A stretch of DNA of 64,000 nt. Origin: a virus. Its lineage: Duplodnaviria; Caudoviricetes. The notes beneath the pieces are model-generated. The model was given only the letters and a program-made list of their open reading frames with translations. It ran no database searches and was not told the DNA's origin. The translations under genes were made by a program, and so were the position numbers. Shown piece by piece: positions 6,264 to 36,502 of the stretch. The DNA is taken from positions 47,626-111,625 of IMG/VR virus record IMGVR_UViG_3300031992_004562, one strand, 5' to 3'. The number at the start of each line of letters is the position of its first letter. Position 1 is the stretch's first letter.

Positions 6264-7115
6264 TTATAAATTTATTACTGGACGAACGCTAAAACCAATA
6301 TAACGATTGTTAGTGAATACACGGATATTGTCTGAATAGAAATGCAAGTACCAAGCGTAATTGGGAACGCCTAAATAAAGACTTGAAGACCACAAGTTAC
6401 AGCCAGAACCAATGCCGTAGATATCAGAATCATTATGATAACCAGCTGCAGGAATAAACAATTGATTTCCATTCTTTCCTTTAAATATCCTGCCATTTAA
6501 TCCTTGAATTCCTCCATCAACTTTTAGATTATGCTTTATTTTATTAGGATTATAATTATTAACCCAATAACTATGAGTATAATTTATTAATTCTATATAC
6601 TGTTCTTCAGTTGGAATATGAAATTTAAAATTATGTAATTTTTTATTCTAGTAAGCAGCATCATCTTCAGGCAGTAATTCTGTTAAATTATCAGTAAATC
6701 CCCAAGTTTTTGTTATTTGATTATATCCCTTTTGAGGATTATTACAATATTTTGTTAAACAATCTTTTTCAGATAAATCTGTATAGTGTTCTGCATATTT
6801 ATATGTAGACCAACTGAATTCTGGTTTATTTGGTTTCAATTCGCCCCATGCATAATATCCACCATACCAATCTTCGGCTTTAGACAACTAATTCTAATTA
6901 ACTCCTAAATTATATTTGCACCATAAAGTGCCTGAAGGCAAACCTAAATCAACAACTTCTTTTATTAAATCATATTTCTATTTAATAACATCTTCTGCAT
7001 TAATGACATCATTATGTTGAGATAATGAACTAATTGGTTCATTATCTTCAAAATCATCAAGTGCAAGTTTAATGCCTCTATTTACAGCTTCTAATATCTG
7101 TTTATAATTTTTCAT
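6264..7115 (-). CDS. Leader A + DUF1566/FISUMP-like (C-type lectin-fold) protein, code 15; candidate DGR target
   Basis: MKNYKQILEAVNRGIKLALDDFED..VDLGLPSGTLW..YYAWGE..FIPAAG..GFSVRPV; continuous 283 aa with TAG=Q. Confidence 0.85.
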
Positions 7116-7183
7116 AATTCAATATATTTATTAAACAAAATAACAATTTATTCATATAATTTAAAAATAATAGAGTGCTTTAA

Positions 7184-8143
7184 ATGAAAATATTACAACC
7201 AAGTTTTTAGATATTAGAACAAGAACCAGGATTAAAAGGTATTTATAAAGCAATTGAATATCCTGGACGTATTTGCTATAATTCAACAGATAAAATAACA
7301 GAAGATTCTGCCGAAGAATTTGTTCATAATAGGTTAGAAGCATCTAATCATGGTGCACCTATGGAACATGGCGCAGTTTATTTGTATATTACTAGAAATG
7401 TTGATTATGATGAATGGCTTTCCCCTAGTCCAGAATATGGCAAGTATGATGAACTTTTAGAATTTTATAGTGATAACAAATATTCAAAAGTTGAAGAACG
7501 AGTATGTGTAGATTTAAAAGATCATTTATATATTTCGACTAATTATAGAGTTTTATTTGAGAATAATAGATTAGATGACTTAAAATATTTATGTGAACCA
7601 ACAGAATATCACCATAAAAGAGTAACTGTTAAATTCACTTGCAATATTGGAGTATCTCGTGAATTTAATAGACATCGTGCGGATTCTATTAATGAGGAGT
7701 CAACAAGATATTGTAATTATTCAAAAGATAAGTATGGTAATGAGATTTCTATAATTCAAAATAACAATAAACTGAGCAGATTTGATTTTAGTGCAGGAGT
7801 TAGAGAGTTTATTGATTATTGCAAGATAATTGTAGATAATGATAAAGAATATAATAACCCAAGAAATGGTTTTGGAGAAATAGATTATTGGCTATTTTCT
7901 AATGAAGCAGCTGAATGGTCATATATTGGTTTGACACAATACTGTGGCTGGAATGCACAAGATGCAAGAGATGTATTACCATTGGATACCAAATCTATAT
8001 TGGTTCATAGTGCATTTATAGATGATTGGAAGCATTTCTTCGATTTGAGAGCCATTGGAACTACTGGTGCACCTCATCCTCAAGCAAAAGAATTAGCATC
8101 GCCATTAATGGAAGAATTTAAGAAAAGAAATTTAATTGATTAA
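7184..8143 (+). CDS. thyX: FAD-dependent thymidylate synthase ThyX, code 15 (TAG at codon 9)
   Basis: GRICYNS, HGAPMEHG, SREFNRHR, EESTRYCNY, ARDVLP; N-terminus restored by reading TAG 7208-7210. Confidence 0.93.
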
Positions 8144-8146
8144 ATT

Positions 8147-8431
8147 ATGGATGTAAATACGTATAAATTAACTCATAAAAAGCCAGAGAAAAGTTTTGAA
8201 TATATTGGCATAGATGGAGAATATATTAAATATTTTTGTTGGAATCAAAATGGTTTTAATAATGCATTATATGATCATTTTGCAGGGGAAGAGATAAAAG
8301 ATAGTGAGAAAAAAGATATAAGAGAAAAAGCATGTTATAATTATCCTTTACATTATCCATGCATTATGAAAATACATACTTATAATTCATTTGAAGCTGG
8401 AAGATTAATAGCAGAATTTGAATATGAATAA
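8147..8431 (+). CDS. Hypothetical protein
   Basis: ORF in operon. Confidence 0.7.
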   Translation: MDVNTYKLTHKKPEKSFEYIGIDGEYIKYFCWNQNGFNNALYDHFAGEEIKDSEKKDIREKACYNYPLHYPCIMKIHTYNSFEAGRLIAEFEYE

Positions 8432-8453
8432 TGAATAAAAATAATTTAAAGTT

Positions 8454-9023
8454 ATGAAACAATTAGATTGGAAACATATTGAAAAATTATCAGAAGACGA
8501 TCATTTAAAAAATATTGAATTAGCAGAATCTGAATATAAAAAGATTTTTAAGAAATATAGAGAATATGATGATAAGCTTCACAATATAGAATCATATATG
8601 TATAATATACATTATCAATATATGTTAAAATATGTGAGATATAAAGACAAATATATTAAAATTGATTTACCTCGAAAAACAATATATATGTATGTTATGC
8701 ATGAAACATTTGAAACATACAAAGATAAAGATGGGAAACAATGTTATGAATATGAATTAAGAGGTGAAGGCTATATTCATGAAAAAGAAGCACTTCAAAA
8801 ATTTATATATCCTGAAAAAGATTGTTACACAGATGATGAGGTAAAAAGAATATTGTATGATGGATATAATATATCAAATCATTTACAAATATATGTGTCA
8901 AATGATAAAGGAAAAATTGGTCCACGCAAGCCAGAAGATATTGAAATAATTTCTAAAGAAGAATATGAAAATAATGTAAAAACATATTTAAAAAAGCTAT
9001 TAAAAAATTATGAGTCAAATTAA
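8454..9023 (+). CDS. Hypothetical protein
   Basis: ORF in operon. Confidence 0.7.
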   Translation: MKQLDWKHIEKLSEDDHLKNIELAESEYKKIFKKYREYDDKLHNIESYMYNIHYQYMLKYVRYKDKYIKIDLPRKTIYMYVMHETFETYKDKDGKQCYEYELRGEGYIHEKEALQKFIYPEKDCYTDDEVKRILYDGYNISNHLQIYVSNDKGKIGPRKPEDIEIISKEEYENNVKTYLKKLLKNYESN

Positions 9024-9312
9024 AATTGGTGAAAATGGGCCAAGATTTAGAATTGATAATGAATATGAAACTTGGAGAACAGATAAAGAATATTGGGTTG
9101 ATAAGTTTAATGAAATTAAAGATTCATATGATTTAGCATTTCCAGATCAACAAACACTTGCTGATTTAAGATATAAATTGCATAGATGGCAAATGTATGT
9201 TAATATGGCATTTAATATTCATAATTGTGATGCAATTAATGTTTCATTTGATTATGATACATGCACATTATATATTCATATGAATGAAGAACTTCAAAAA
9301 ATATTTGATTAA
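9010..9312 (+). CDS. Hypothetical protein
   Basis: ORF overlapping previous stop. Confidence 0.7.
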   Translation: MSQIKIGENGPRFRIDNEYETWRTDKEYWVDKFNEIKDSYDLAFPDQQTLADLRYKLHRWQMYVNMAFNIHNCDAINVSFDYDTCTLYIHMNEELQKIFD

Positions 9313-9317
9313 ATATT

Positions 9318-12158: not shown

Positions 12159-13580
12159 ATGCCAATTAGAAGAAAGTTAAATAATTTAGATGCAAGTTAT
12201 AAAGTAAGTACTGGAAACAAAATTACCAGAACAATTACTGATTTTTTAAATACTGAATATAGAGAATATTCAAATTATGTTATATCTACACGTGCTCTTC
12301 CATCATTATGGGATGGAATGAAAGTTGGCGGTAGAAAAATTCTTTATTCAGCATTTGTTGGTGGTTTAAAAGATGGTTCAGAAAAGAAGCTTTTGAACTT
12401 AATTGGTGATGTTTATAATAAAACATTATATGCTCATGGCGATGCATCACTTATAGGTGCATCTTTGACACTTGGTTCATATTATTCAGATAATTTAAAT
12501 CCAATTGAGATTGTTGGCCAAGGCGGCAGTTTAAGAAATTCACAAGCAGCCGCAGCTCGTTATCTTTATTGCAAATTATCTAAATATGCAAAGCTTCTTT
12601 ATAAGGTTGATGAGGATCTTCTCCAATATGTTTTTGATGAAGGTGAGTATCTTGAGCCTGAACATTTCCTTCCAATAATTCCACTTGTTTTAACTGCAAG
12701 AACAGAGGGATTGGCACCAGGATATAAATTTTCTTCATTTTCATATAATCCAATAGATATAATAGATGGGTGCACAGAAGTGATTAAGAATGGCCATCTA
12801 GAGAAAACTATTATTAGACCATATGTTAGAGGAATCAAACAAGATAAATTTGGTTTCGATAAAGATTCTAATAAATGGTATAATGTTGGTGAATGGTCAA
12901 TAGATGAAAAAAATGATATTTTAAGAATTACTGATCTTCCATATGATGTTCAATTTGATAAGTTTGAAAAGAAATTGAATTCATATATTGAAAATGGATA
13001 TATCAAAGAATGGAAGAACTTTTCACATGATAATGATTTAGATTATAGAATTTTATTTGATAAATCTAAATTAGCAAGAGAAGCTCAACCAGATAAAAAG
13101 GAACAATTGCTTAAGAAGTTTATGCTTCAAACAAATATTCCAAATGATTTATTATATGTTTTGGATGAAAATAAAAAAGTTAAGCATTTTCAAACTAAAG
13201 AAGATTTATTAGAGCATTTTGTTAAAATTCGTTTAGAGAAATATAATGATCGCAAAGATAGATTAGTATCAGTAAAAGAAAAACAACTGGAAGAAAATTC
13301 TAATTTATGCAAATTCATTGAACTTGTAACATCTGGAAAATTAGTTCTTAATAATAGAAAAATGGCAGATGTTAAAAAAGATTTAGATGCACATAAACTT
13401 CCATATAATGTATTAACAATTCAAGTTTCAAAATTAACTCAAGAAGAAAAGGAAGAAATTCTTAAAAAGAATAAAGAGATAGAACAAGAACTTGAATATA
13501 TTAAGAATACTACAATTGAACAAATGTATCTTGATGATTTAAAGAATTTAAAAAAAGAACTTATTAAAGATTTTGAATAA
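12159..13580 (+). CDS. DNA topoisomerase II medium (GyrA/ParC/gp52-like) subunit
   Basis: RALPSLWDGMK..RKILY, YAHGDASL, AAARY catalytic Tyr, EPEHFLPIIP. Confidence 0.95.
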   Translation: MPIRRKLNNLDASYKVSTGNKITRTITDFLNTEYREYSNYVISTRALPSLWDGMKVGGRKILYSAFVGGLKDGSEKKLLNLIGDVYNKTLYAHGDASLIGASLTLGSYYSDNLNPIEIVGQGGSLRNSQAAAARYLYCKLSKYAKLLYKVDEDLLQYVFDEGEYLEPEHFLPIIPLVLTARTEGLAPGYKFSSFSYNPIDIIDGCTEVIKNGHLEKTIIRPYVRGIKQDKFGFDKDSNKWYNVGEWSIDEKNDILRITDLPYDVQFDKFEKKLNSYIENGYIKEWKNFSHDNDLDYRILFDKSKLAREAQPDKKEQLLKKFMLQTNIPNDLLYVLDENKKVKHFQTKEDLLEHFVKIRLEKYNDRKDRLVSVKEKQLEENSNLCKFIELVTSGKLVLNNRKMADVKKDLDAHKLPYNVLTIQVSKLTQEEKEEILKKNKEIEQELEYIKNTTIEQMYLDDLKNLKKELIKDFE

Positions 13581-13607
13581 TTGTAACAAAAACAAATATA
13601 AATGAAT

Positions 13608-14174
13608 ATGAGACCAATAGATGAAGTATTAAAACAAGAACCAACTTTTAGCTTAGATTAGGAACAAGTTGAAGCAATTTGTGATTCTATTCATGGGAAA
13701 CTAATTGATAATCTTATGCCTAAATTAAAAGAAGAGGTTATAGAAGAAGTTAAAGATTATTTAATAAAAGACTTTGCAAATGGTGTTCAAAAATGGGTTT
13801 GTGAAGAATTTGCGCCAGAAGTACAAAATTGGGTAGTTAATGAATTTTCTCCAGAAATTGAAAAATGGGCAAAAGATTATATGAATGATAAGCGTACTCA
13901 ATTACATATTAAAGATTTTTGTGTAAATGATGATGATAGATGTGGACAATGTGTAACAACTGAAGAAATAGAGGATCCTATTAGAAAAATGGGAACTGTA
14001 GAACCAGAATGGAATGATGAGAAACATTTAATTACTAAAGCTGGTAGTATTCAAGATGATGCACTTGCATTTATTTATGGTGCCATTAAGAAATATGGTC
14101 AAAAGCCAGAATTATTTAATGATTTAAAAGAATATATTATTAAAGAAGCAAATTATATTGGAAAAATAATATGA
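13608..14174 (+). CDS. Hypothetical protein with 12-aa W repeats, code 15
   Basis: ATG 13602/13608, one in-frame TAG; VQKWVCEEFAPE/VQNWVVNEFSPE repeats. Confidence 0.7.
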
Positions 14175-14530
14175 ACTGGAAATACGATAAACATAATTGG
14201 TATATATCATGGTATAATTTGGATAATTTACCAGAAGATAGTTATGAGAAAACATTTGCTCGTAAAGATATAACAGATAAAGGTGATAAAGATTGGAGAA
14301 AAATATTTAATTTTAGATATAAAGTTAAAGACTATATGCAAGATGGATATATGGAATCTGAATATGTCGGTTTGCAATATGTAAATGATTATGCAGAAAC
14401 ATCTTTAACTTGGATTGGAAGATATAAGATTTATAGATTATTTTTTAGAGATTCCTTTAGTTATCGTGATAAAGGCAAATGGTGTTTAAAATATAAATCA
14501 TGGAGAAATGACCACGTATGTGGTGGATAA
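14171..14530 (+). CDS. Hypothetical protein
   Basis: ORF overlapping previous stop. Confidence 0.7.
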   Translation: MNWKYDKHNWYISWYNLDNLPEDSYEKTFARKDITDKGDKDWRKIFNFRYKVKDYMQDGYMESEYVGLQYVNDYAETSLTWIGRYKIYRLFFRDSFSYRDKGKWCLKYKSWRNDHVCGG

Positions 14531-14547
14531 AATAATTATGTTTAATT

Positions 14548-15423
14548 ATGGAAAAATAGATATTTGAAGAATTATCAATATCAGATGAAATAAAATTAGA
14601 AGCTGAAAATTTAGCAAAAGTTATATTAACTGATTCTAAATTAAATGCTTATATTATTAAAAGAAATGGATTTAATAATATATTAAAACACGAATTTGTT
14701 ATTAAATTATTTGGTGTTGATTATAACATAATTTATTACATATATAGTATTGATAATATTTCAGAATTAGATATTAAATTATATAAAAACCTCATATCAA
14801 TAACAAAAAATAATGAAAATGAAATATTATTAAATCTTTTGTTTGTTTCAAATAATCCAGATAAAGAATATTTTTATAGTTCAATTTATCATGAATTAAC
14901 ACATGTATATCAATATATTAAATCTAAAAATGATGTTTTAAAAAATATAAAAATAAAAAATTTATATAATCTTATTAAAGATATTAAAAATAATAGTCAA
15001 TCTGAATTAGATATATTATTTACAAATGCTATATATGCATGTTTTGATTTTGAACAAGATGCTTTACTTCATGAAACATATTGTGAATATATGAAATCAT
15101 ATCAAATATATCACCTTAATTTTGATATAGAAGATTCTAATGCATATAAATTTATAGAAGATTTAAGAAATGCGATTAATAATATAGATAAATTAGATGA
15201 AAAACTATTTAAAAATTCACAAGATTTTTATTTAAATTTGTTCACCAAAAAACTTAAAAGATTTGAAACTAAATTTGGAAAACTTATAATAAAAATCAAA
15301 AAAGATTTTTATGAAAATCATTTAAATGAGGGTTTGCTGCCTGGAAATTTTAGAGCAATTTCATTAATAATAAAAGATGATAGTAATGAAATTAATAATT
15401 ATATAGATGATGAAATATTTTAA
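14548..15423 (+). CDS. Putative zincin (HExxH) metalloprotease, code 15
   Basis: ATG 14548, TAG at codon 4, then open; IYHELTHVYQ and downstream FEQDA. Confidence 0.65.
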
Positions 15424-15435
15424 AAAAGGTTCTAA

Positions 15436-16374
15436 TTACTTAGAACCTTTTTCAATTTCTTCACGATTTGCATTGTACCATTCATTGAACTTGTAATATT
15501 CATCAATTCCAACTTGGTGAATTGCTGCATCAAGTTCTGCATAATCACAATGCTTAATCTTTACAATAATTCGTTTTCCACGAGGATCCTTAATAGGAAC
15601 AATAGGACGTGCTACAATACCTTCCTCAAGATAATCGGGATTTGATGGGCAAGGAACACGGGTCTTAAAGCCCTTACGAACCATTGCTTCTGCTTGGTCG
15701 ATTGTCATTTGGCCAATATAAGGTGCCCAAGGCAATTCAAGCTTTACGCAGTAATCCATCATCATATCCTTTGGTACATACCAGCCTTGTACACAGATAT
15801 CAAATACAGCGAAACGGTTATTATCCTTGTCATAGTTGCCACCAGCCTGGATTTTCTTACCATAGAATTCACCGTAAATATATACTGGTGCCTCCTCATA
15901 TTCAACTACGTACACGCCTTCATGCGTTGATTTATCAATTGGCTCATTTGGACGATAACCTTCAGCTACATCAAATTCATACATAACCGGAAGATTCTTA
16001 TCATTCATTTTTGGTACAAACTTAGCAGACGATGCAGGGAACAATTGTGCCAAAGTAGGCTTAATTCGTTCAATAATTGCATCAATGAAAGCCTTTTGTC
16101 CAGTACCAATAATATTAGCATTATCAGTTTTACCAGAACAGAAACATTCACCAGTAGAAGGATAGTACACAATCTTAGTGTTAGTGCCATCAATCTTAGA
16201 GAAGCAATCATACATCAAATCCTTGATATATGCCATATGTTCATCAGAGTAATCACCCATGATGATTTTGTTTTGGAACACCTTCCATACTGGATTAGGA
16301 AGAGTTACTTTACCAAGGTTTTGATAACGCTTGTACAGCGTGTTAATTTTTGTGTAAGTTTGAGTTTTTGTCAT
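15436..16374 (-). CDS. RNA ligase, Rnl2-like
   Basis: SKIDGTN (I), YGEFYG (III), FAVFDI (IIIa), EEGIVARP (IV), VKIK (V). Confidence 0.88.
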   Translation of the reverse strand: MTKTQTYTKINTLYKRYQNLGKVTLPNPVWKVFQNKIIMGDYSDEHMAYIKDLMYDCFSKIDGTNTKIVYYPSTGECFCSGKTDNANIIGTGQKAFIDAIIERIKPTLAQLFPASSAKFVPKMNDKNLPVMYEFDVAEGYRPNEPIDKSTHEGVYVVEYEEAPVYIYGEFYGKKIQAGGNYDKDNNRFAVFDICVQGWYVPKDMMMDYCVKLELPWAPYIGQMTIDQAEAMVRKGFKTRVPCPSNPDYLEEGIVARPIVPIKDPRGKRIIVKIKHCDYAELDAAIHQVGIDEYYKFNEWYNANREEIEKGSK

Positions 16375-16508
16375 AACTTCATTTAAATTTTTTGGTTAAT
16401 ACTGTTAATTGTTCTCCACCAATTTGGAATTAACCAAATACTTTTGCGATCAAATAACCTGCCGCGAGACATACAATACATTTAAACATATTTTTATAAA
16501 TTTTAAAG

Positions 16509-16787
16509 TTAATTTTCTTTTTTCCAATAGCCTTTATGAATTTCCCAAATAACTTTTTCTGCCAGTGCTTCAAAGTTTTTTGCATAAATTCCATATTCAT
16601 GAACTTCATTTTCATTTGGTTTAAATGTAGCACCAAATTTCATATTATATTTTGGTGCAACCCATTTAACACCAAATTTTTCAGAAATAAAGGATTTGAT
16701 ATTTTCTTCATTCCACTCACCTTCATAACCATGTTCTTTTAAAAGGTGAAATGCAAATCCTTTCATCATTTCTAAATTTCGTTTCAT
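16509..16787 (-). CDS. Hypothetical protein
   Basis: ORF in early operon. Confidence 0.65.
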   Translation of the reverse strand: MKRNLEMMKGFAFHLLKEHGYEGEWNEENIKSFISEKFGVKWVAPKYNMKFGATFKPNENEVHEYGIYAKNFEALAEKVIWEIHKGYWKKEN

Positions 16788-16795
16788 ATTATAAA

Positions 16796-17041
16796 TTAAA
16801 TTGCTATAAAAGTTTCAGTTACTTCAAAAACTTTAAGTGTATCAGGTTTTAATACTACTGGATCAAACATTCCATTTGGGCGGACAATCCAACCATTTTT
16901 CTTCCAAAAATCAACCTCTTTCTCGGAAAGATTAATCATTTCACCTTTTCGAAGTGTATAATGGTCTTTGTTAAAACCTTTAATGCAAACACCTTTAAAT
17001 GATTTAGTTTCAATTTTGTTTTTAGTAAAATCTACTTTCAT
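16796..17041 (-). CDS. Hypothetical protein
   Basis: First ORF after early-promoter motif. Confidence 0.7.
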   Translation of the reverse strand: MKVDFTKNKIETKSFKGVCIKGFNKDHYTLRKGEMINLSEKEVDFWKKNGWIVRPNGMFDPVVLKPDTLKVFEVTETFIAI

Positions 17042-17062
17042 ATTATGTCCTTTTTAAATTAA

Positions 17063-17106
17063 CGATACAAAATTAATATTTTTATTTTAAACCAAAAAAT
17101 AGAAGC
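17063..17106 (-). promoter_or_regulatory. Early promoter (CTTCTATTTTT box + Bacteroidetes TAnnTTTG -7 element)
   Basis: GCTTCTATTTTTTGGTTTAAAATAAAAATATTAATTTTGTATCG on minus strand; repeated motif. Confidence 0.7.
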
Positions 17107-17147
17107 TAATAAATAAACAAAATATAAAACAATTTTATAATTTTTAT

Positions 17148-18026
17148 ATGGCAAATTATTATCAAAAAGAAGATAAAACAGAGTTTTTTAGAACACCTGA
17201 TTGGATAGTTGAAAAGTGTTATGAAATGATTCCTAATGCAAAAACAATTTTAGATCCATGCGCAGGTGATTGTGGTCTTGAAGATTTTACTAGAGATGTT
17301 GATTACACTTTATTAGATTTAAATCCAAGAAGTTCAGTTATTGAAAAAGCTGATTTTTTAAATTGGACATCTAATAGAAAATTTGATGCAGCAATTTGCA
17401 ATCCACCTTTTGGTTTAAAAAATGAATTTATTGAACATCTTTTTGAATTTACAAATAATATAATTCTTATTGCACCATTAAAATCTGTTATTAATGAATG
17501 GTTCACTAATATAAAAGATATTTACTTAGATTGGCGAATTCCATTTTTTGGATTTGGAATATTAACAAGTGTTGCTATATTTCATTTAACAAAAGAATCT
17601 AATGGAATGACAAGAGATGAAATAAAACAAAAATATCTTTTACCACCAACCACAGGATTAGATGTTATTACAGTATGGGAACCTCGCCATTTAAAACTTG
17701 ACAAATGGGGTTTATATGTTCCAATTACAAAGGCAAACATTGTACGTAATAATGAATTATTAAGAGAAGAATATATTTTTGAACCAGGAGATGATTCTAT
17801 TTTTATTGCAAAGAAAGCATCAATCAATAATCAAGCAGGTGATAGAGTTTATAGACATGTAATATATACAGACACTCGAGAAGATGCATTAGCAATTATT
17901 CAAAAATATAAAGAAAATGACGAATATATAAGAAATTATGCATATCAATATGGAAATAATATTTTAGATTTAAGATATGTTCCAGCATTGATAGATGATA
18001 TATATAAAATTCATAGTTTATTTTAA
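17148..18026 (+). CDS. N6-adenine DNA methyltransferase
   Basis: FRTP, ILDPCAGDCG (motif I), CNPPF (motif IV). Confidence 0.85.
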   Translation: MANYYQKEDKTEFFRTPDWIVEKCYEMIPNAKTILDPCAGDCGLEDFTRDVDYTLLDLNPRSSVIEKADFLNWTSNRKFDAAICNPPFGLKNEFIEHLFEFTNNIILIAPLKSVINEWFTNIKDIYLDWRIPFFGFGILTSVAIFHLTKESNGMTRDEIKQKYLLPPTTGLDVITVWEPRHLKLDKWGLYVPITKANIVRNNELLREEYIFEPGDDSIFIAKKASINNQAGDRVYRHVIYTDTREDALAIIQKYKENDEYIRNYAYQYGNNILDLRYVPALIDDIYKIHSLF

Positions 18027-18182
18027 ATGAAAAACTTTTTATTAAAATTTTGTGCATACTCACTTAAAGCGATTGGAGTTATTATTGGTATTCCAGGAAT
18101 TATTTTATCTGCAATTGGTTTAGGCCTATCAGATGTGTGTGAATCAATAGTTGATTATTGTGAATTAGAAAATGAAAAATAA
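18027..18182 (+). CDS. Small membrane protein (51 aa)
   Basis: MKNFLLKFCAYSLKAIGVIIGIPGIILSAIGLGL..; fills the gap exactly. Confidence 0.6.
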   Translation: MKNFLLKFCAYSLKAIGVIIGIPGIILSAIGLGLSDVCESIVDYCELENEK

Positions 18183-18184
18183 TT

Positions 18185-18550
18185 ATGTGGTGTTTAGAAA
18201 ATAAAATAGTTAATGGTATGTTTTTTAAACAAACCTGTGCAATTGCACCTGAGCAATATGATGTTTTTCTTGATGAAAAATATGTTGCATATGTTAGATG
18301 CCGTTGGGGTAAATTAAAAGTTAATCCAGTAAATATTGAATTAACTATTCCAAATATTGTTAATATATCAGATTTTGATTATGAAAAAATAATGGAAGAT
18401 AACAGACAATATGAAATTGGAATAGATTTTAATACACAAATTTATTTCAAAGAATGGAAAGACGATGAATTTAAATCAGATATTCCAAAAGAAGAATTTT
18501 TAAATATCGCAGATGCAATATATAAACATTTAGGAGTTGCTAATATTTAA
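18185..18550 (+). CDS. Hypothetical protein
   Basis: QTCAIAPEQYDVF..AYVRCRWG. Confidence 0.7.
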   Translation: MWCLENKIVNGMFFKQTCAIAPEQYDVFLDEKYVAYVRCRWGKLKVNPVNIELTIPNIVNISDFDYEKIMEDNRQYEIGIDFNTQIYFKEWKDDEFKSDIPKEEFLNIADAIYKHLGVANI

Positions 18551-18634
18551 AAAGAAGAGAATTGTTTCTCTTCTTTTTATTTAAATAATATTTTCATTCG
18601 TCTTATCATTACAGTATTAAATTTTTGATAATAA

Positions 18635-19726
18635 TCAAAAATCTTCAACATCATCAAGAGCCAATTGAATTCCTCTATTAACGGCTTCTAATAATGAATT
18701 TTCAAATTTTAAATTTAATATAAAGCTTTCAGATAATTTTTCTATATTTTCTTTTGAAAATGCTACAAATTTTTCAACAATTGAATTTACAAAATTTCTA
18801 TCAAGCCATGGATATTTTTCATATAAATATGTTGTGTTTATCCAGGTAAATGGCTATTTTTCGCCTGATGGTGTTATTGCAGTTCCTGTCATATATAATA
18901 TATTTTCAAGTGCAAATTCATTTTCAGATTTAGATTTATCTAATAATTGTTGTAAATCTGCAAGAAATTCTTTTTCGTCATCTGCAATTTCCTATATTGC
19001 CTCTTTAACTCTATGAACAGAATATTCTGTTCTTAAAAATCTTAATACATAATTATTAAGTTTTTCAGCTGTACCATCTTCATCTATAAAATACCATTCA
19101 GGCCTATCAGCTAATGATAAATCTGTAAATTGTCTAAATGCCATTTTATTTGGATCATTTGGATCTCTAAATAAACCACTTTGACCAATAGATTGTGTAT
19201 ATTTTTTAGTATGTGTTCTATTTTCATCTTTTGTTCTAGATGCATTTAAACCTTGATATTCTGGTTTACGTCTCCAATCATTTTCTGGATAATCGGTTTC
19301 AGCTTTGCCAAAACCATGTCTTAGACGAATATTCTATTCTTCATCACCCCATTCATGATATTTTGATAGAAATCTGCCATTTTGCATCCAACGGATAACT
19401 GTACGGCTAATCTTAATAATATGTACATCACCTTCAATATCCATTGGTGCAGAATTTCTTTGTCCTGCCAACACCTATGAATATTTTTCAGAATCTTTAA
19501 AAGATTGTAAACGACTTTTAAATCTTGGAGAATTTTCTAATTCTTTTCCAGAAAGATATCCAGTTAGTTTTTTATCATTTTCAATATTAACTTTCTTTCT
19601 TGAACGAGGCCCATATGATAATGCCCCATCATTTAAATAACCAATTGACACAAATAAATCATTTGGCAGTATGTTTTTTGTTAAAAATGGAATTATATCT
19701 TTACCAACTAATATACGTTCTTTCAT
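18635..19726 (-). CDS. Hypothetical protein with leader-A motif at its C-terminus, code 15
   Basis: 363 aa continuous frame with four TAG, ending LLEAVNRGIQLALDDVEDF-TGA. Confidence 0.82.
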
Positions 19727-19782
19727 ATATTTTTATACATTATATTCTTTTATTATTTATCATAATGTAATAAATATATTGA

Positions 19783-20736
19783 ATGGAAATAATTAATAAG
19801 AAAATAATAGAATCTGTTAATAGAGGCATATAGTTGGCATTAGATGATTTTGAAGATATTGATAATATATCATCTAATAAAAATGACATAGTGTCTTCTA
19901 GTAACTTTGATGAATATGTCAAATTTAGAAACATTATTAAAAAGATTTTAAATCATGATAGAGATCTTCCAAGAAAATTAGATGAAATTCGTGTATATAA
20001 AGAAATGATTAAATTACATGATGATTATGGTTTTCTTTATAAAGTTAATACATTAGATGAATTAAAATCTATTATTGAAAGATTTATAGATATTTGGCCA
20101 GTTGCCACAAATAATTTTAACTGGCTAGATGTTTCTTCGTTAACAAGTTTGCAATATGCATTTAGTTCAGCATCTATAAGAGATAAAATTGGCAAAGTAA
20201 TTATAGATGAATGGAATGTTTCTAATGTAAAAGATATTCAATTTATGGCATGGCAATGCGCATATTTTGAAGCAGATTTATCTAAATGGAATGTATCTAA
20301 TCTTGAATATGCAGGCGGTGCATTTTTAGGATGTAAAAAATTTAATTCAGACTTATCTAATTGGAATGTTTCAAATTTATATGATGCATCTTCAATGTTT
20401 TTATATTGTGATAATTTTAATTCTGATTTATCTAGATGGAATGTTTCTAATTTAGTAGATGCATCTTAGATGTTTAAAGAATGCAAAACATTTAATTCAG
20501 ATTTATCTAATTGGGATGTTAGTAATGTGCAAAATGCTAATATGATGTTTTATGATTGTGAAGCTTTTAATTAGGATTTGTCTAAATGGAATTTAGCAAA
20601 ATGCAATAATGGAAATAGAGATTAGTGGTTTAGATAGGTATTTGCATATACACCAATGGAACATGAATATGATTTATATCCAGATAAATTATTAACTGAT
20701 AATATGAGAATATAGGCTACAATGAAAAAGAAATGA
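19783..20736 (+). CDS. Leader A + DUF285/BspA-like leucine-rich repeat protein, code 15
   Basis: MEIINKKIIESVNRGI(Q)LALDDFED; FNSDLSNWNVSNL repeats; FN(TAG)DLSKWN = FNQDLSKWN. Confidence 0.88.
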
Positions 20737-21473
20737 AAAAATTTAATAAACATATATTAGAAGCAGTAAATAGAGGTATCTAGTTAGCTTTAGATGATTT
20801 TGAAGATATAGAAGATAATAATACTTTATCTTCAAAAAATGATGTTATAGATAGTGAAGATGTTATTAAAAACAAAATTGATTTATAGAATTTTGTTGAT
20901 CTTGGTCTACCATCTAAAACATTGTGGTATAAAAGAACATTAGGTGAAACTGATAATACTTTTGGTGAATGGTACGCATGGGGAGAAATAAAACCTAAAA
21001 ATGTATATGCTTGGCATAATTACAAATATGCAAAAAGAAATGAAGAGAATTTAACTAAATATTGCAATGATAAAGTTGATGGATATAAAGGATTTACAGA
21101 TAATAAAGAAACTTTAGATTTATGCGATGATATTGCATATTTAACAAATAAACATTTTAGAATTCCTTCAAGTAATGATTTTGAAGAATTATTAGATAAT
21201 TGTAACTATGAATGGATAACTGGTGATACAATTGGAATCATATTTAGGTCAAGAAAGAATGGAAATGAATTATTTTTTCCTGCATCTGGATTTATTAACG
21301 ATTATGGATAGGTTGCAGAACGTGGAAAAACTGGATTATTTTGGGCAAATAATATTTCCAGTGACGCATTGCCAGAATAGGCGTATTGCTTAAGTATTGA
21401 ACAGGCAAGTAATGCAGTTATAATGGCAGATAGATGTTTAGGCTTATAGATTAAACCAATATGGGTATGGTAA
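20733..21473 (+). CDS. Leader A + DUF1566/FISUMP-like protein, code 15
   Basis: MKKFNKHILEAVNRGI(Q)LALDDFED..VDLGLPSKTLW..YAWGE..FFPASG; ATGA overlap with previous gene. Confidence 0.87.
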
Positions 21474-22258
21474 AGAATAATAAAATATTAGAAGCCATTA
21501 ATAGAGGTATATAGTTGGCACTTGATGATTTTGAAGATATAGAGAATAATAATTCTGTATCTCAATTAAGTGATGTCATAAATAGTGATGATGTAATTAA
21601 AAATAAGATAGAATTTAATAAATTCTTTGTTGATATGGGATTTCCATCTGGAACTATATGGGCTAAATACAATTTAGGTGTTAATCCATATAGAGGACTA
21701 TTTATACCTCAATCTTATTATGGTAATTATTATGCATGGGGCGAAACTAAACCAAAAAATAATTATGATTGGAGAAATTATAAATTCATTTCTAGTATAA
21801 GTCCTCTTAAATTTAAAAAATATAATGGTAACAGAAAAGATAGAGAAACTCTTGATTTGCGTGATGATGCGGCATTTGTTAATAACCCATATTCAAATAT
21901 CAATGTTAGAGTGTGCCTTCCAACACCTGAACAAATTATTGAATTACAAATACATACAGATAGAGAACTTGTACATAATTACAAAGGTATTGCAGGATTA
22001 AATGTTGTAATTTTAACATCTAGATGCAATGGTAAAAAATTGATGTTTCCTCTTGGAGGATTTAAAGATGAAGAACAAACGAAATATGTTGGTGAAACTG
22101 GTTTTATAATGTCAAAATATATGGATAAACAATATAATCATAGGGCATATGGAATTAGTTTTTAGATTAAATACACTGGAGGAAAACATTTGGATTTTAA
22201 ATTTGATTATATTGGGAAAAAGACTGGTGTAAATGTAAGACCAGTAATAATGAAATAA
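21467..22258 (+). CDS. Leader A + DUF1566/FISUMP-like protein, code 15
   Basis: MVKNNKILEAINRGI(Q)LALDDFED..VDMGFPSGTIW..YAWGE..GVNVRPV. Confidence 0.87.
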
Positions 22259-22289: not shown

Positions 22290-23528
22290 TTATCGTCTAA
22301 CTGAACCAGAACTTCTAGAACCACCACTTGATCTTGAGCCTCCTGAATATCCACCACCTCTACTTGAACTTCCACTGCTTGGTCTTGAGCCACCATATGA
22401 ACCAGATGGTCTTGAAACTGAACCACTTGACCTATATGAAGACTGTGTAGGTGTACTTTGTCTAGTAGGCATACTAGTTGTTCGTGTTGAAGTAGATGAA
22501 CTTCTTTGAACAGTTGATGTTTGTGTAGTACGTGTAGGAGTGTCTGTTCTATTAATATTTGTATTTGACGTACGTGTAGGTTGTTGTATTCTTGAAGAAC
22601 TTTGAGTATTTGTACTTCTTTGTGTAACACCTGTACTTCTTTGTGTAGAAGTTGTCGATGTACGTTGTGTAGAATTTACAGATGTTCGTTGAGATTCTGC
22701 TGAACGTGTTGATACTGTATTCCTACTATCAAATGTTCTGGCTGAATTAAAATTAGGTTGCCTTGCTGAACCATCTCTATGGGATACACCTGTTCTCTTT
22801 AAATCACCTGCATTTCTATATCCAGTATTTCTTACACTAAATGAATTCGTTGGATGTGCTGTTGCATAATCTCTACGTGTTACTCCACTATGTATTGTAT
22901 TATATCCATGATGTGGATGGCGCCCATGATGGAATGAACAATAATGATGGTGATGATGGAATCTATAGCATCTATCCCAGTACCATCTATATGTGTAGCA
23001 AGGACGATAATACCACCATCTTGGATAATATCCCCAATACCAAGGAGATTCCCAACAATACCAATGTGATGACCAGAACCAATTATAAATTACAGGCTTA
23101 TAAATATATACCGGTTCAATAATATAATTTGTACCGTAGATATATTCATCACCAATAATTTGAACTGACACTTCTTGTGTCTGATTATCTTTTTCAACAT
23201 AGATAGATGCAACGTCTTGATATATGTCTTTTGCAAGAACAGCTTGAATAACAATTAATTTATTATCTGCTGTGCCTGCTTCAACAACTCTCAAATAATC
23301 AATTTGATTGTCACCATTCAGGTCAAGATTTGAAAATGCACTATCAGGATTATTAAGCATATTCTCAAATTGTTCTGTAGTACTTGCTTCTGCAAAAAGT
23401 TTAGCCACTACTCTAAGATCTAAACTTTGTGAAATGTCTTCACTATTAGCAGAAACGGTAATTGTCTCTTGTGCAAATGTTAATACTCCAATTAACATCA
23501 TTGCTAAATATAAAAATACTCGTTTCAT
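22290..23528 (-). CDS. Host-like (Bacteroidetes) secreted protein with EF-hand-like DLNGD motif and long S/T/R/G low-complexity tail
   Basis: Signal peptide MKRVFLYLAMMLIGVLTFA; DLNGDNQIDYL; W/Y/H-rich segment; no TAG. Confidence 0.8.
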   Translation of the reverse strand: MKRVFLYLAMMLIGVLTFAQETITVSANSEDISQSLDLRVVAKLFAEASTTEQFENMLNNPDSAFSNLDLNGDNQIDYLRVVEAGTADNKLIVIQAVLAKDIYQDVASIYVEKDNQTQEVSVQIIGDEYIYGTNYIIEPVYIYKPVIYNWFWSSHWYCWESPWYWGYYPRWWYYRPCYTYRWYWDRCYRFHHHHHYCSFHHGRHPHHGYNTIHSGVTRRDYATAHPTNSFSVRNTGYRNAGDLKRTGVSHRDGSARQPNFNSARTFDSRNTVSTRSAESQRTSVNSTQRTSTTSTQRSTGVTQRSTNTQSSSRIQQPTRTSNTNINRTDTPTRTTQTSTVQRSSSTSTRTTSMPTRQSTPTQSSYRSSGSVSRPSGSYGGSRPSSGSSSRGGGYSGGSRSSGGSRSSGSVRR

Positions 23529-24028: not shown

Positions 24029-24790
24029 TTAATTTACATTTTGATATGCAACTACAATAACTGTATAATATGAAGTAGTAGTTTGTTGTCCACCTTTAAC
24101 TTCTCTACTTATATATGATTGATTGCTAATTGTTTTAAATTGTAAAGCATATTTGTTAATTGCATCTTCACCATAAAGATGTTTTATATTATTTTCTGCA
24201 TCTTCCTGAGCCAATCTTTTAGCCTCACTTTCTGTATTTGCACAACCTACACCAGATGCAGCATAACGATTATCACTATCATCATCTAATGCATATAAAA
24301 CTTTAACAAAATCTGCTGCAGCTTGTTTTTTAACAGCTTCTAATTCTTCACCACTTTGTATTCCTCTTGCATGTGTCATATTAACAGTAGATGTTACCAT
24401 ACTATTACGAAGACTATCATCAAATTGTTGATTTGTTATTGCATTTGCAGAAAATGTACTTGATAATAAAGTTATTGTTGTTAAAACACCATATAAAGTT
24501 TTTTGACCTTTAGATGCAGCTTTCTTTACTACATCTGCAATAAATTTGCAAGATTTATTTCCAAATTTATTTTTAACTTTATTTAATGTTTTATTTAATG
24601 GCTCTTTAAATTTCTAAAAAATGTTTGTAGATTCACCTTCATTTAATGCAAATATATATGATAAACCATATTCTTCTAATAAATTTGCAGAAGATGATTC
24701 TTTATCCATTTCAGTTAAAGCTTTTTTGACTTCTTTGGCAACAGAAGTCATAATGCTTTCATATAATGCTTTTTTATTATAATTTTTCAT
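24029..24790 (-). CDS. Leader B + internal signal-like segment + LPP20-like domain, code 15
   Basis: MKNYNKKALYESIMTSVAKEVKKALTE; one TAG; KTLYGVLTTITLLSSTFSANA; YAASGVG..EAKRLAQEDA. Confidence 0.8.
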
Positions 24791-24807: not shown

Positions 24808-25137
24808 TTATTCTTCATTATCATTATCAAATTCTTCTTCTGTCTCATCAAATGGGCCTTCCATTCCTGACAATATATCAGCAGCTTCACCTAAGCCATC
24901 TGCTAATTCACGAACATAATCAGATAATTCTTCATATGTTTCACAACTTGTGAAAGCACCACGACGGCATGATTCGACTTCATACTTCAAATCATAGATT
25001 TTATCTAAGACTTCAGTTAAGAAATCTAATTCATTCTCATCCCATCCATCCATTGTAGATTCATTAAGAGCTTTTTTAACATGGGTTGATACCGCTTTCA
25101 TAACGCTCTCAAATATTTTTTTATTTTCTCTAGTCAT
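24808..25137 (-). CDS. Leader B + acidic hypothetical domain
   Basis: MTRENKKIFESVMKAVSTHVKKALNE; ATG at 25137. Confidence 0.8.
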   Translation of the reverse strand: MTRENKKIFESVMKAVSTHVKKALNESTMDGWDENELDFLTEVLDKIYDLKYEVESCRRGAFTSCETYEELSDYVRELADGLGEAADILSGMEGPFDETEEEFDNDNEE

Positions 25138-25163: not shown

Positions 25164-25844
25164 TCAATCTTCACCTCTTTCCCATTGTTCATCTTTCCAA
25201 CGATCATACGCATCATCGTCATCATCATTGAAATATTCTTCATCGTAGTTATTATCTACGATTTCACTGATTTCATCAACGAAACAATCATCTAATTTAT
25301 TTTTAACAATTTCTTCTTTTGTTAAAACTGTATGATTATTATTGACATCTACGACATCTATTTCAACACCGGTAATAGTAATAGTATCAACTTCTCCATA
25401 TCCTCCCTCTGGTGGTTGATAGTAGTCGCCTGGACGATAAGGAACATAATCCCATGTAACATCAAAATCAACATTAATAGTTATATCTGAACATGGTACC
25501 TATACATAAATTGTTCCACCGCTCATTTCTGTATCTGAATCATAAATATAATTTTCATAATAAGAATATGCATTTGGATAGAATTTCTTATATTGTCTAG
25601 CCATTATAGACCAATCTATATTAGCAACAAAATTAATCAATTCATCTCTTGACATATTTTCAGCCAAAACATATTTTTCACCATCTCTGATTGTTTTGAA
25701 ATTTGCTGGCAATTCGTCAAAATGAATTGCATCCAATTCGGCTTCATGATAGCTAGAATATATTTTTTCTTCTTCCAATAATGCCTTTTTAACTTCTTTT
25801 GCTACAGCTGACATTATTGATTCATATAGTTCTTTTTTATTCAC
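25164..25844 (-). CDS. Leader B + acidic hypothetical domain, code 15
   Basis: GTG start, NKKELYESIMSAVAKEVKKALLE; one TAG at 25500-25502; ends TGA. Confidence 0.78.
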
Positions 25845-25883
25845 AATAATCCTATATTTGTTTTTATATTTATTTTTGTAAAA

Positions 25884-25920
25884 AAACATTTTTGGGTTAC
25901 TATGTTATAATTAATAAATA
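25884..25920 (+). promoter_or_regulatory. Tandem middle (AAAC-N18-TATAAT) and late (AATAAATA) promoter motifs upstream of suppressor tRNA
   Basis: AAAC 25884-87, TATAAT 25906-11, AATAAATA 25913-20. Confidence 0.55.
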
Positions 25921-25930: not shown

Positions 25931-26003
25931 TGCCCCATTGCATAATGGCAGTGCGCATGACTCTAAATCATGGTCAGTCTCGGTTCGATTCCGAGTGGGG
26001 CTG
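25931..26003 (+). tRNA. Amber suppressor tRNA (anticodon CUA), probably Gln-charged; CCA not encoded
   Basis: Cloverleaf: GCCCCA/TGGGGC acceptor, GCAT/GTGC D-arm, CATGA-CTCTAAA-TCATG anticodon arm, CTCGG-TTCGATT-CCGAG T-arm, G73. Confidence 0.93.
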
Positions 26004-26052
26004 CAAATAAAACAGATAAATTTTTATATTTATCTGTTTTAATTTTTAATAA

Positions 26053-30189: not shown

Positions 30190-30981
30190 TTATTTCATTA
30201 AAACTGGTCTTACAAAAACACCATGTTCTCTTGCTATTGTATCAATACGTATTCTATTATCTTTTTCAATTTGCATACAATAATATAACCAATCAAACGC
30301 TTCAGGATATATATAACTTGTCATATAATATCCATAATTTAAATTTGTTAAGTTTACATTAATTGAATTTTCATTCTAAAGATACCCATGTATTGGAAAT
30401 ATTATTTCATTTCCATTTATTTTAGAGGTTAATTTACAAACATATAAATTTAAAACACCATTGTATGTATAATGAAAAGATTTTATTGTATTGGCTAATA
30501 ACTCTTCATATTGATCTATAGTTGGTACACAAATATTTACATGATATTTTTTATATAAATTGGAATTATATGCTGGGTCATCGCATAATTCTAATTTCAT
30601 TAATTTATCATCTTTATTATATTTAATATAATGATCTATAATATTTCTATTATTAATAGTTCGTTTTTCTAAAAATTTATACTATGTTGTTATTTTAGGT
30701 TTTAATTCACCAAATGCATAATAATCTCCATACCAATCAGCAGCTATTTCTAAATTATTAGGATTAACACCAAGATTATATTTTGACCACAACGTTTTAG
30801 ATGGAAGACCTAAATCGACAAAATTTTTCATTAACTCTATTTTATCATTGATGACATCATTTACATCTATAACATCATTACTCTAAGATATAGAATTATT
30901 ATCTTCCATATCTTGATAATCATCAAGTGCCAACTAAATACCTCTATTGACTGCCTCTAATATTTGTTTGTAATTTTGCAT
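30190..30981 (-). CDS. Leader A + DUF1566/FISUMP-like protein, code 15
   Basis: MQNYKQILEAVNRGI(Q)LALDDYQD..VDLGLPSKTLW..YYAFGE..GVFVRPV; 263 aa. Confidence 0.87.
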
Positions 30982-32438
30982 TATCTTAAAGTGTTGAATG
31001 ATTTTGCATAAACATTATATCCAAACATATATGCACAATTTGATGACGCATTAAATATTTCAAAAGGATTATTATAATTATCAATCACTATATCATTTGT
31101 AAGATTGATAGATGTATTACAGTTATTTAATATTGTAATATTTTTTACTGTGTTTATAGTGTTATTAAGTGTTAAATTATTTGATGAATTTATATATAAT
31201 TCATTAATATCATTAATATAAGTCGTAGCTGCAGCATTAATATTTATATTATTATCATTATTAATATACAAATTATTTAAAACAACACTATTTCCACTAA
31301 TATGAATATTATTATCATTATTTATTAGTGCATTTTTCATTACTGTAACAAGGCTGTCTGCATAAATAGTATTTTTATTTCCAATAATATTATTATTAAA
31401 CTATAATAATGGTGGATCTGCGTTTGTTTTTGTTCTTTTAATAAATATTGAACAATCATAACCAATATAATTATTTGATATTTCTCCACGACTAATAGCA
31501 TTATTTGAATAAAAAATTGGCATACATTTTGTTATATATGGGTTGGTTTTAATTATATTATTATAATAATCAACATTATTAAATGTTAAACGGAAACTAT
31601 CACCAGGATGTTTATATGTTAAATTACAAAAATCATATGGCGCTTCATTTCCACTACTATCTTTTAATAGTGTAATCTTTATTTCATATTTGGCGCCATT
31701 TTGAACTATATCATATGTTCCATAAACATTTAATGAATTTCCACTATGATCATACATATTATATAATTTACCATTAAATGTTGATGTATCATTTGCTTTA
31801 ACTAATAAACTTAATGAATTATAACTTAATGGACCACTAAAATTAAATCCAGGCATTGCCATACAACCATTAGTGTCTGTAGGTTCTGATTTATAATAAT
31901 CAGTAATTAAATAAAATTTATTTGGAATAAATGGTTTAGCATTTAATATCTATTTTAATGTTCCAACTGATGTATTTAACGCATCATATAATTTATTAAC
32001 ACTGCTATCTAACCCACCAATATGTTCATTAATATCATTAATTGACGCATTGAATAAATCACGTGTAGTATAATGTGTAAGAATTTCTGATAAATTATAG
32101 TTTTTAACATTTAACTATCTATATGTTGTTCCAGGAATAATATTTGTAGATATATTAGAAACAACAATATCTTCATTTGTATCTTTATCAACCAATTTAT
32201 AGTCTGGATATGGGCTTACTGAATATGTTGACCATGCTATAGATCCAATATTTGTACTTATATCAGGATCAATATTAACAGCAACTGGGAATCCAGAATA
32301 GACATACTTTCTTGCAATAATACTAGTATCATTATATTTACGTTCGACCTCATAATATAATGAAGTTAAATCTGTTGTTGGCGAAATATTAATACCACTG
32401 GCATCAATAAGTTGTAAACTTTTTGCGGTTGTTTGCAT
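30981..32438 (-). CDS. Putative tail fibre/structural protein with Asn-rich C-terminus, code 15
   Basis: Three ORF fragments in one frame joined through TAGs; paralog of 39336..40736. Confidence 0.72.
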
Positions 32439-34690: not shown

Positions 34691-34734
34691 GCCTTGGACC
34701 TTGTACAATCAGAATTAGAAAATGAATAGTATGG

Positions 34735-34768
34735 AGAAACTTCGATGAGATATCGAGGTTTCTTTTTT
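34735..34768 (+). terminator. Intrinsic terminator
   Basis: AGAAACTTCGAT/ATCGAGGTTTCT followed by T run. Confidence 0.7.
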
Positions 34769-34784
34769 AATAAATATATTGAAT

Positions 34785-35783
34785 ATGAAAAGATTTAATA
34801 AGCAAATATTAGAAGCAATCAATAGGGGTGTTTAGTTGGCACTTGATGATTTTGATTATAATGAAGATATAACAAAATCTAAAACTGATATAATTAATAC
34901 TGAAGAATATGCATTTAGTATTATAAACACATTATATAAAAAACTAACATCTGAAATATTAACTGTTTAGGAATTAGACCGTTTGGTACAATATTATCAA
35001 ATAACAAAGCAAAAATATAAAGTTTATTCTAGACAAGAGCTAAAAAGAATTATTGATTATGTAATTGGTGTTTATCAATCTGGTGATTTTGTTAAAGGAC
35101 TTAATCCTGATATAAAAACATTAAATTGGATAGATGTTTCTGAAGTAAAATATATGGATGAACTATTTAAAGGATTATAGTTTACATCAGATATTTCTGA
35201 ATGGGATGTTTCTAATGTTTTAACAATGTCAAATATGTTTGAAAACGCTACATTCACTTCAGACATTTCAAAATGGAATGTTTCTAAAGTTACAACAATG
35301 TATGGAATGTTTTCAGCATGTAATTTTGAAAGTGAATTATCTGATTGGGATGTTTCCCATGTAACTGATATGGGACATATGTTTTTCATTTCACCATTTA
35401 ATGGAGATATTTCAAAATGGAATGTTAAAAATGTAACTAATATGCCATATATGTTTTATGCAGCTGTATATTTTAATCAACCAATTGGAAAATGGAATAT
35501 GTCCAAAGTTAATAATATTGATGGTATGTTTAATATGGCTAGTAGTTTTAATTAGGATATTTCTAAATGGAATATTTCTAATGTTAAATCTTCTGAGCTT
35601 GCGTTTAGCAAATCTGGATTTGATTAGGATTTATCTAAATGGGATGGCGGAAATTTATCAATGACTACATTTAAAGGCAGTAAGATTTCTTCAAATCATT
35701 TACCAAAGTTTTGGCAAGAAAATGAAATGAATTTAGATGGCAAAAGAATATTAAATACATATTTACCAAAAGATTGGAATTAA
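34785..35783 (+). CDS. Leader A + DUF285/BspA-like LRR protein, code 15
   Basis: MKRFNKQILEAINRGV(Q)LALDDFD; FNGDISKWNVKNV repeats; FN(TAG)DISKW. Confidence 0.88.
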
Positions 35784-36502
35784 TGAAAAATTATAATAAA
35801 ATATTAGAAGCCGTTCATCGTGGTATTTAGTTAGCACTCGATGATTTTGAAGATATAGAAGATAATAATTCTATATTTTAGAGTAATGATGTCATTGATA
35901 CAGATGATTATATAGATGATAGAGTTACATATAATAAATTATTAGAAAAGTTTTTTGATTAGATGAGTGATAGCTTAGTTATAAAAGTATCTAAAGATGA
36001 TTTAAAAAAACTTGCAAATTTATCCAAAAATCTTGGTATGAAATTTAAAGTTGAAGATAATAGATTTTTACAAGATATAATTAAAACTGTTTGTAGAATA
36101 GATAAGTCTGCAAATTTAAATTGGATTGACACATCAGAAGTAACCAATTTTGAAAATCTATTTAATATGACACTATTTCATGGTGATATTTCAGAATGGG
36201 ATACACATAATGTCAAAAACATGTATTCATGCTTTGCTTATTCTCAATTCAATGGCGATATATCAAGATGGGATGTATCAAATGTTGAAAATATGAATTG
36301 GATGTTTTAGGGTTCTTGGTTTAACAAACCAATTGAAAATTGGAATGTAGCTAAAGTAAAAAGTATGAATGGAATGTTTAGTGAATCGCATTTTAATTAG
36401 AATATATCTAAATGGAATGTTGCAAATTGTAAAGGTTATATAAAATTTAATAATAAAAGCACATTAAAAAAATCTAATATACCACCAAAATTTAGAAAAT
36501 GA
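35783..36502 (+). CDS. Leader A + DUF285/BspA-like LRR protein, code 15
   Basis: MKNYNKILEAVHRGI(Q)LALDDFED; FNGDISRWDVSNV; TAATG coupling to previous gene. Confidence 0.88.

Follow-up and report, generated by a model that had tools for sequence, protein, structure and literature searches.

Why should proteins with unrelated C-terminal domains begin with the same ~45 residues? The question is raised by a 64,000-nucleotide window (bases 47626-111625 of one 111,625-bp virus record, IMGVR_UViG_3300031992_004562) in which seven genes encode this common N-terminus, here called leader A. It is joined to a domain (the cargo) that is either C-type-lectin-like (CLec) or made of DUF285 repeats of the leucine-rich repeat (LRR) kind. 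The answer put forward here, tentatively, is that leader A attaches binding heads to the virion surface. Genes were read throughout with TAG as glutamine, and the seven genes and their promoter cassettes are as follows.

6264-7115 (-): P0001, leader A joined to CLec, 283 aa; leader at 6972-7115
7117-7132 (-): late-promoter cassette, exact 16-mer, one base 5' of the P0001 ATG
19769-19784 (+): late-promoter cassette, exact 16-mer; overlaps the ATG of P0002, which heads a three-gene array
19783-20736 (+): P0002, leader A joined to DUF285 repeats, 317 aa
20733-21473 (+): P0003, leader A joined to CLec, 246 aa; start overlaps the preceding stop
21461-22258 (+): P0004, leader A joined to CLec; start likely at 21467
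30190-30981 (-): P0005, leader A joined to CLec, 263 aa; start overlaps the stop of an upstream 485-aa gene
34769-34784 (+): late-promoter cassette, exact 16-mer, abutting the P0006 ATG
34785-35783 (+): P0006, leader A joined to DUF285 repeats, 332 aa
35783-36502 (+): P0007, leader A joined to DUF285 repeats, 239 aa; leader nearer to the CLec-class leaders

All seven genes are open at these coordinates. A previous, sequence-only reading of this DNA had described seven genes with a common N-terminus on two unrelated cargo types, and both parts of this description hold. Aligned over the first ~45 residues, the seven genes have a mean column identity of 69% with 11 invariant columns, and between the two cargo classes the leaders are 58% identical and the cargoes 18%. 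The starts that it gave stand; the ORF that is open from 21461 probably begins at 21467. A leader profile run against the six-frame translation recovers each of the seven genes (E-values: 1e-21 to 4e-29). The core of the leader is a 16-residue motif, ILEAVNRGIQLALDDF, in which 12 of the 16 positions are near-invariant in 139 of 150 cluster representatives. Conservation within this core is without helical periodicity, and the copies vary at synonymous codon sites. The synonymous variation argues that selection on the leader acts at the protein level and, taken with near-invariance on all faces, suggests that the peptide itself is specifically recognized. In a structural model of P0003 (see below), the leader is predicted to form a helix at residues 2-24 (predicted local distance difference test [pLDDT] ~70), a disordered acidic stretch at 27-37 and a short helix at 41-51. 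A membrane or Sec signal was rejected, given an acidic helix that lacks any hydrophobic stretch. Self-association was addressed by co-folding a stand-in relative, P0025, in three copies using an alignment of database relatives; the score of 0.00 weighs neither way.

The leader has no match in Pfam (whole-protein scan), PHROGs, NCBIfam or PDB sequences, and none of 185,579 prokaryotic species genomes yielded a relative in a pattern scan. These results speak against the possibility, named in the sequence-only reading as one that would refute it, that the leader belongs to a known cellular domain. Among 1.84 billion proteins, the leader profile finds 259 cluster representatives at E <= 1e-3, nearly all from residue 1, and the tag begins at residue 1-3 in 124 of 139 representatives. 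This search, similar to one that the sequence-only reading had proposed, returned a portable tag on the same two cargoes: 95 of the best 150 representatives are full-length, comprising 64 CLec proteins, 30 DUF285 proteins and one odd chimeric protein. All 37 IMG/VR loci with the leader are on large recoded contigs, and a single 380-kb related record has 34 leader matches. On these searches, leader A is phage-specific and confined to one phage clade. In the contig, a six-frame profile search adds three N-terminal copies from outside the window, of which two are diverged. CLec open reading frames (ORFs) number six in the contig and DUF285 ORFs four, and every one of them bears a leader, typical or diverged. 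The tagged family makes up 10 of ~116 called genes in the contig (~9%), a large coding share for one tagged family on two classic binding scaffolds. As had been noted, the ORF track hides the family, with standard gene calling breaking the genes at TAG; the core can help to spot it in metagenomes, where such calling splits the genes in the same way.

The three cargoes that had been read as DUF285 are secure. P0002, P0006 and P0007 match DUF285 (PF03382) with 157, 187 and 93 bits against a cut-off of 25 (E-values: 1e-26 to 1e-55), and P0002 also matches TIGR02167 (59 bits; cut-off 30). The other four had been called DUF1566/FISUMP-like, which is upheld for the fold and not for the sequence scores. 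P0001 falls below the cut-offs for both Lcl_C/DUF1566 (PF07603; 18 bits against 34.9) and FISUMP (TIGR02145; 21.9 against 41.65), and P0003, P0004 and P0005 have no match to either profile. The fold evidence comes from one modeled CLec member, P0003 (AlphaFold2, 62 relatives; pLDDT 88.8 overall and >90 for residues 52-246, with the folded domain beginning at 52). Nearly all of the 50 best rows of a VIA-align comparison are C-type-lectin-like domains. The matches include the C-terminal domains of Bdellovibrio Bd2740 and Legionella Lcl (both Z 7.4), the phage tropism determinant Mtd (Z 6.8), TvpA (6.4) and tetranectin (6.2); a Foldseek search of the model against the PDB gave nothing significant. 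The model indicates that the CLec cargo has a C-type-lectin-like fold, with family-level sequence support below the cut-offs.

Toward the C-terminus of the CLec cargo, hypervariable stretches alternate with fixed anchor residues, as would be expected for a set of differing binding sites. The earlier description of a "library" of ligand binders fits in that each scaffold is much diversified, but only two scaffolds are present. The variable proteins of diversity-generating retroelements (Mtd, TvpA and TaqVP) belong to the same fold class (Z 6.3-6.8) and likewise have a variable C-terminal binding region between fixed residues; unlike these retroelement-driven proteins, the CLec cargo appears to owe its diversity to many paralogs. 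A retroelement origin was considered for the end of P0001 (6264-6461) and rejected, as the 111-kb contig contains no template repeat for it and its only partners are paralogs. No reverse transcriptase (RVT_1) was found in the contig or in any of four records of relatives, themselves fragments of 24-76% completeness. The cargoes are 190-290 residues long with isoelectric points (pI) of 4.9-9.5, five of the seven being below 7.5, and no CLec or DUF285 ORF of the contig has a secretion signal.

The contig is ~22% complete by CheckV and has a GC content of ~27%. Reading TAG as sense raises the total residues in ORFs of >=150 aa from 13,000 to 19,366 and the longest ORF from 631 to 1,191 residues. 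This gain and the presence of a cognate tRNA support the recoding.

25931-26004 (+): suppressor tRNA with anticodon CUA, needed to read the TAG codons of the tagged genes

The cargo of one tagged gene is 30% identical to sequence of Prevotella Lak megaphages, and relatives that carry the leader, on contigs of 120-498 kb, encode a gp23-type capsid protein and an S77 prohead protease. On these features, together with the TAG gain and the tRNA, the contig is part of a TAG-recoded megaphage that is Lak-like and has morphogenesis genes of the T4 type. The guts of humans and animals commonly contain Lak-type megaphages; to our knowledge, none has been cultured. A term search of Lak phage papers found no mention of DUF285, lectins or paralogs.

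TAG codons are concentrated in some of the genes, among them those for a gp6-like baseplate wedge (37378-39303; E-value: 6e-14) and a weak gp25-like protein. The tagged genes all hold 2-6 TAG codons, and the virion genes likewise contain TAG. The window has three copies of the exact 16-mer (0.01 expected) and the contig has a fourth elsewhere; every copy is directly 5' of the first gene of an array. The same cassette heads array after array in the relatives, where the downstream genes overlap start-to-stop, and so the earlier claim that promoter and leader travel together is well founded. Within the cassette is the motif ATAAATA, in agreement with the consensus of T4 late promoters, TATAAATA. 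Across the contig, ATAAATA precedes 23 of 56 genes with TAG codons and 8 of 60 genes without them. The end of the motif is only 8-10 bases from the ATG in the leader cassettes, and their transcripts may thus be almost leaderless. The tagged genes can be assigned, on promoter and codon content, to a late, TAG-containing class. The codon for the Gln of the leader core is itself TAG in each of the seven N-terminal copies with Gln at this position (e.g. 19831-19833 and 20781-20783) and in 23 of 33 such copies in the relatives; the general TAG share of Gln codons is 31-49%. A TAG at this position would fit a translation gate that awaits the suppressor tRNA (25931-26004), which is suggestive only, the copies being related.

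The proposed model for leader A is as follows. Its core would bind one conserved phage structural partner, an acidic flexible linker would come after the core, and the binding would attach small, late-made heads (CLec or DUF285 LRR) to the exterior of the virion. As a genome encodes ~35-45 heads, the particle would have an adhesin repertoire for host or gut surface glycans and proteins. We infer partner binding, virion location and adhesin role alike. A specific contact with a conserved phage partner is suggested because the core is conserved on all faces, the leader is restricted to one clade and the genes are of the late class. Display on the outside is favored because both cargo folds are typical of adhesins and because of the links to the baseplate: P0005 overlaps the gene for a paralog of a protein from the baseplate block, P0006 and P0007 border directly on that block (gp25-like/gp6-like), and a protein within this block carries the acidic half of the tag.

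30981-32438 (-): 485-aa late protein, overlapped at its stop by the P0005 start; paralog of the 466-aa baseplate-block protein at 39336-40736 (26% identity, E-value: 1e-12)
44684-46765 (-): 693-aa protein in the tail/baseplate block; N-terminus has only the acidic second half of leader A (weak, E-value: 0.018)

A recent precedent also favors display on the outside. The jumbo phage Goslar has ten virion proteins with an N-terminal DUF7941, three of which add carbohydrate-binding, hydrolase or LRR domains, and its authors propose that they form a host-recognition fiber cloud at the baseplate (bioRxiv 10.64898/2026.04.21.720040). Like leader A, DUF7941 (the Goslar gp22/gp23 family of the chimalliviruses) is a clade-specific N-terminal module with a disordered linker. 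DUF7941 is globular and forms head-to-tail filaments, whereas leader A is predicted to be a single short helix with no detectable sequence relation, and the ten Goslar members compare with 34 leader A matches in one relative. Leader A does not appear to belong to DUF7941, as the predicted architecture is helix, linker and short helix and the whole-protein scan gave no Pfam match; the two would be alike in function only. A conserved N-terminal anchor with swappable C-terminal tips is also found in modular phage receptor-binding proteins and in the chimeric fibers of Bdellovibrio, and it is the tip of Bd2740 that the CLec cargo matches at Z 7.4. Such fibers are long, trimeric and shafted, whereas in the leader A proteins nothing but the ~45-residue tag precedes the head. 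T4 and the chimalliviruses already offer examples of a single tag placed on many cargoes; what stands out here is the size of the family, the two binding scaffolds and the promoter-plus-leader cassette. If docking is correct, the tagged genes are likely determinants of host range or mucus adhesion.

Several points weigh against docking. No partner was identified, and no non-family gene recurs as a neighbor among the 37 related loci. The arrays are scattered, and some of those in relatives are beside head genes and not tail genes. The proteins are small and have no fiber shaft, and 35-45 different heads would need many docking sites. Finally, docking leaves unexplained the invariant Ile-Leu-Glu-Ala of the leader, which fits a prohead-protease site of the T4 type with cleavage before Ala.

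This site is central to a rival explanation that is possible, if rather unlikely: leader A would be a capsid-targeting propeptide of the T4 kind that binds the prohead core and is cut after Ile-Leu-Glu by the S77 protease, with the binders then injected along with the DNA, for example against host defense proteins. In T4, a tag of ~10 residues, MKTYQEFIAE, undergoes a single cut by gp21 and is the sole common feature of otherwise diverse internal proteins (PMC8442874, PMC3012670, PMC5694885). IPI, IPII, IPIII and Alt of T4 resemble the leader A family as otherwise unrelated late proteins with a short N-terminal tag. Both tags begin with Met-Lys-x-Tyr and hold an (I/L)xE site followed by Ala, and T4 and the leader A phages have in common late promoters of the T4 type, a gp23-type capsid protein and, in those records where it was found, an S77 protease. 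The near-constant position of leader A at residue 1-3 speaks for loading into the head, as do the short distances from arrays to the protease gene (3.5 kb, two genomes) and the capsid gene (1.1 kb), and sites similar to (I/L)xE are found at the N-termini of the relatives' capsid proteins (Ile-Asn-Glu followed by Ala, and Leu-Asn-Glu followed by Ala or Ser). The S77 protease gene, present in two of four related records and in the 498-kb leader-carrying contig, was not found in this 22%-complete contig. The likeness to the T4 tag, on which the sequence-only reading had relied, lies in the putative cleavage site and the similar start and extends over only ~six residues, too few for statistics. 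The conserved part of leader A spans ~45 residues, of which ~35 are past the putative cut site, and an (I/L)xE site is common by chance (an estimated ~1.4 expected per 120 residues). T4 internal proteins are small and highly basic, and few T4 genes are tagged; the leader A cargoes are 190-290 residues long, lectin-like or LRR and of mixed charge (pI 4.9-9.5), number 35-45 per genome and have folds typical of surface adhesins.

Large families of head proteins have a parallel in the giant phage SPN3US, in which head paralog families have up to 20 members, some with conserved N-termini holding protease motifs (PMC5694885). Like the leader A family, these are large sets of paralogs in a giant phage, and they lend some support to head loading; there is no sequence relation, and the SPN3US families are head proteins by mass spectrometry, whereas a place in the head is putative for the leader A proteins. 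An extended form of the head-loading explanation, which we consider unlikely, is that the 35-45 LRR/lectin-fold binders are loaded in the head together with ~20 proteins bearing a second tag (leader B, described below) and injected as an antibody-like set of inhibitors against host defense, the early in-frame TAG restricting them to late synthesis. Such loading would amount to the internal-protein strategy of T4 on a much larger scale. If head loading is correct, the tagged proteins are a new kind of injected arsenal.

Virion targeting of the tagged proteins, whether to the outside or the head, fits the evidence. The modular virion-targeting tag of the sequence-only reading is partly borne out: the leader is portable, phage-specific and on genes of the late class, with arrays near capsid and protease genes in relatives and near the baseplate block in the window; the cargo is not uniformly basic, however, and C-terminal and internal copies of the tag exist. 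Either way, the 16-residue core provides a compact, sequence-defined handle for finding the partner protein.

It is quite improbable that the leader is an assembly or regulatory element with no part in virion targeting, such as a self-association neck that would increase the avidity of soluble lectins released at lysis, like the coiled coil of tetranectin or collectins, or an adaptor to an intracellular host or phage machine. The hydrophobic residues of the leader do have a heptad-like 3-4 spacing, tetranectin (a coiled coil with a C-type lectin domain) is among the structural matches and the genes are scattered among non-structural genes. Conservation on all faces, with an invariant Gly and Asp-Asp, nonetheless exceeds the needs of a simple coiled coil, and late expression speaks against a host take-over within the producing cell.

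The weakest explanation, that the leader has no separate function and is just the conserved N-terminus of a single family of paralogs, which expanded, swapped C-terminal domains on one occasion and was homogenized by gene conversion, could draw on the restriction to two cargo types among the 95 full-length representatives, on the tandem arrays that favor conversion and on the poorly resolved leader tree, but it is very unlikely because the synonymous differences make conversion alone insufficient, the leader is near-invariant across clusters that share <=50% identity overall, the tree forces at least three cargo changes and the core recurs at the C-terminus of an unrelated 363-aa protein. Mapped on the leader tree, the type of cargo changes 20 times, compared with 26.6 for shuffled labels, and the three or more cargo changes are forced by its best-supported branches, which suggests that the histories of leader and cargo are partly separate.

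Two further genes of the window carry leader-like sequence.

18635-19726 (-): 363-aa protein of no known family; the last ~21 residues (18638-18700) copy the leader A core
5666-6235 (+): 189-aa protein with a diverged leader intermediate between the A and B patterns (weak)

The C-terminal core of the 363-aa protein is found by the profile with an E-value of 2e-9, and its core Gln is encoded by CAA. Orthologs of this protein have tails that are A-like, B-like or neither. Its structural model (pLDDT 40) is unusable, and an atlas search with a relative, P0020, gave no usable match. The database proteins P0050 and P0128 each join two full units of leader and DUF285, one after the other, in a single ORF; the internal leader has partly decayed in one of the two, where the acidic half is retained and the first half of the core is gone. 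Because of the C-terminal copy and the internal copies in these fusions, the tag is predominantly, though not exclusively, N-terminal. Encapsulins show that cargo can be loaded into HK97-fold shells by a tag at either terminus, a point in favor of head loading. No longer fused forms of the leader were found, which is weak evidence.

Outside the window, a 240-aa gene (G000:C1:16275-16997) has the same cassette and ~10 leader-like residues followed by unrelated sequence, and a normal leader A CLec gene comes after it. It looks like a recombination breakpoint within the leader. In Prevotella phage Lak-A1 (MK250016.1), a CLec homolog (L040:3896-4654) has a recognizably diverged leader, and the next gene starts with a leader-B-like helix. 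The tag principle may therefore extend to described Lak phages.

In a 204-kb relative, a four-gene leader A array (two CLec and two DUF285 genes) is divergent from the gp23-type capsid gene, the two being 1.1 kb apart (L019:2132-4051, -, and L019:5161-9000, +). The 380-kb record has a leader match at a similar distance from its capsid gene. Just past the three-gene array of the window, a TAG-free 412-aa ORF (22290-23528, -) has an N-terminus that resembles a Sec signal peptide; no protein family was matched by this ORF.

Leader B is a second N-terminal helical tag, with the core KKLYESIM followed by a basic helix, on five small proteins whose cargo matched no family.

24029-24790 (-): leader B gene
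24808-25137 (-): leader B gene
25164-25889 (-): leader B gene
36499-36909 (+): leader B gene, overlapping the P0007 stop
43062-43676 (-): leader B gene, inside the baseplate block

Each of four related records has 5-18 copies of leader B, in which TAG is rare, unlike in leader A. Homology between the two leaders was rejected (profile comparison probability 3.9%); a relation is suggested only by their pattern and by the interchange of tails at the C-terminus of the 363-aa family. In the 380-kb relative (G001), an 84-aa leader B gene (L054:3315-3569) directly follows a 593-aa S77 protease (L054:1512-3293), which is the position of the small prohead-core proteins of T4, and the order of S77 protease and 84-aa gene is the same in the 498-kb contig.

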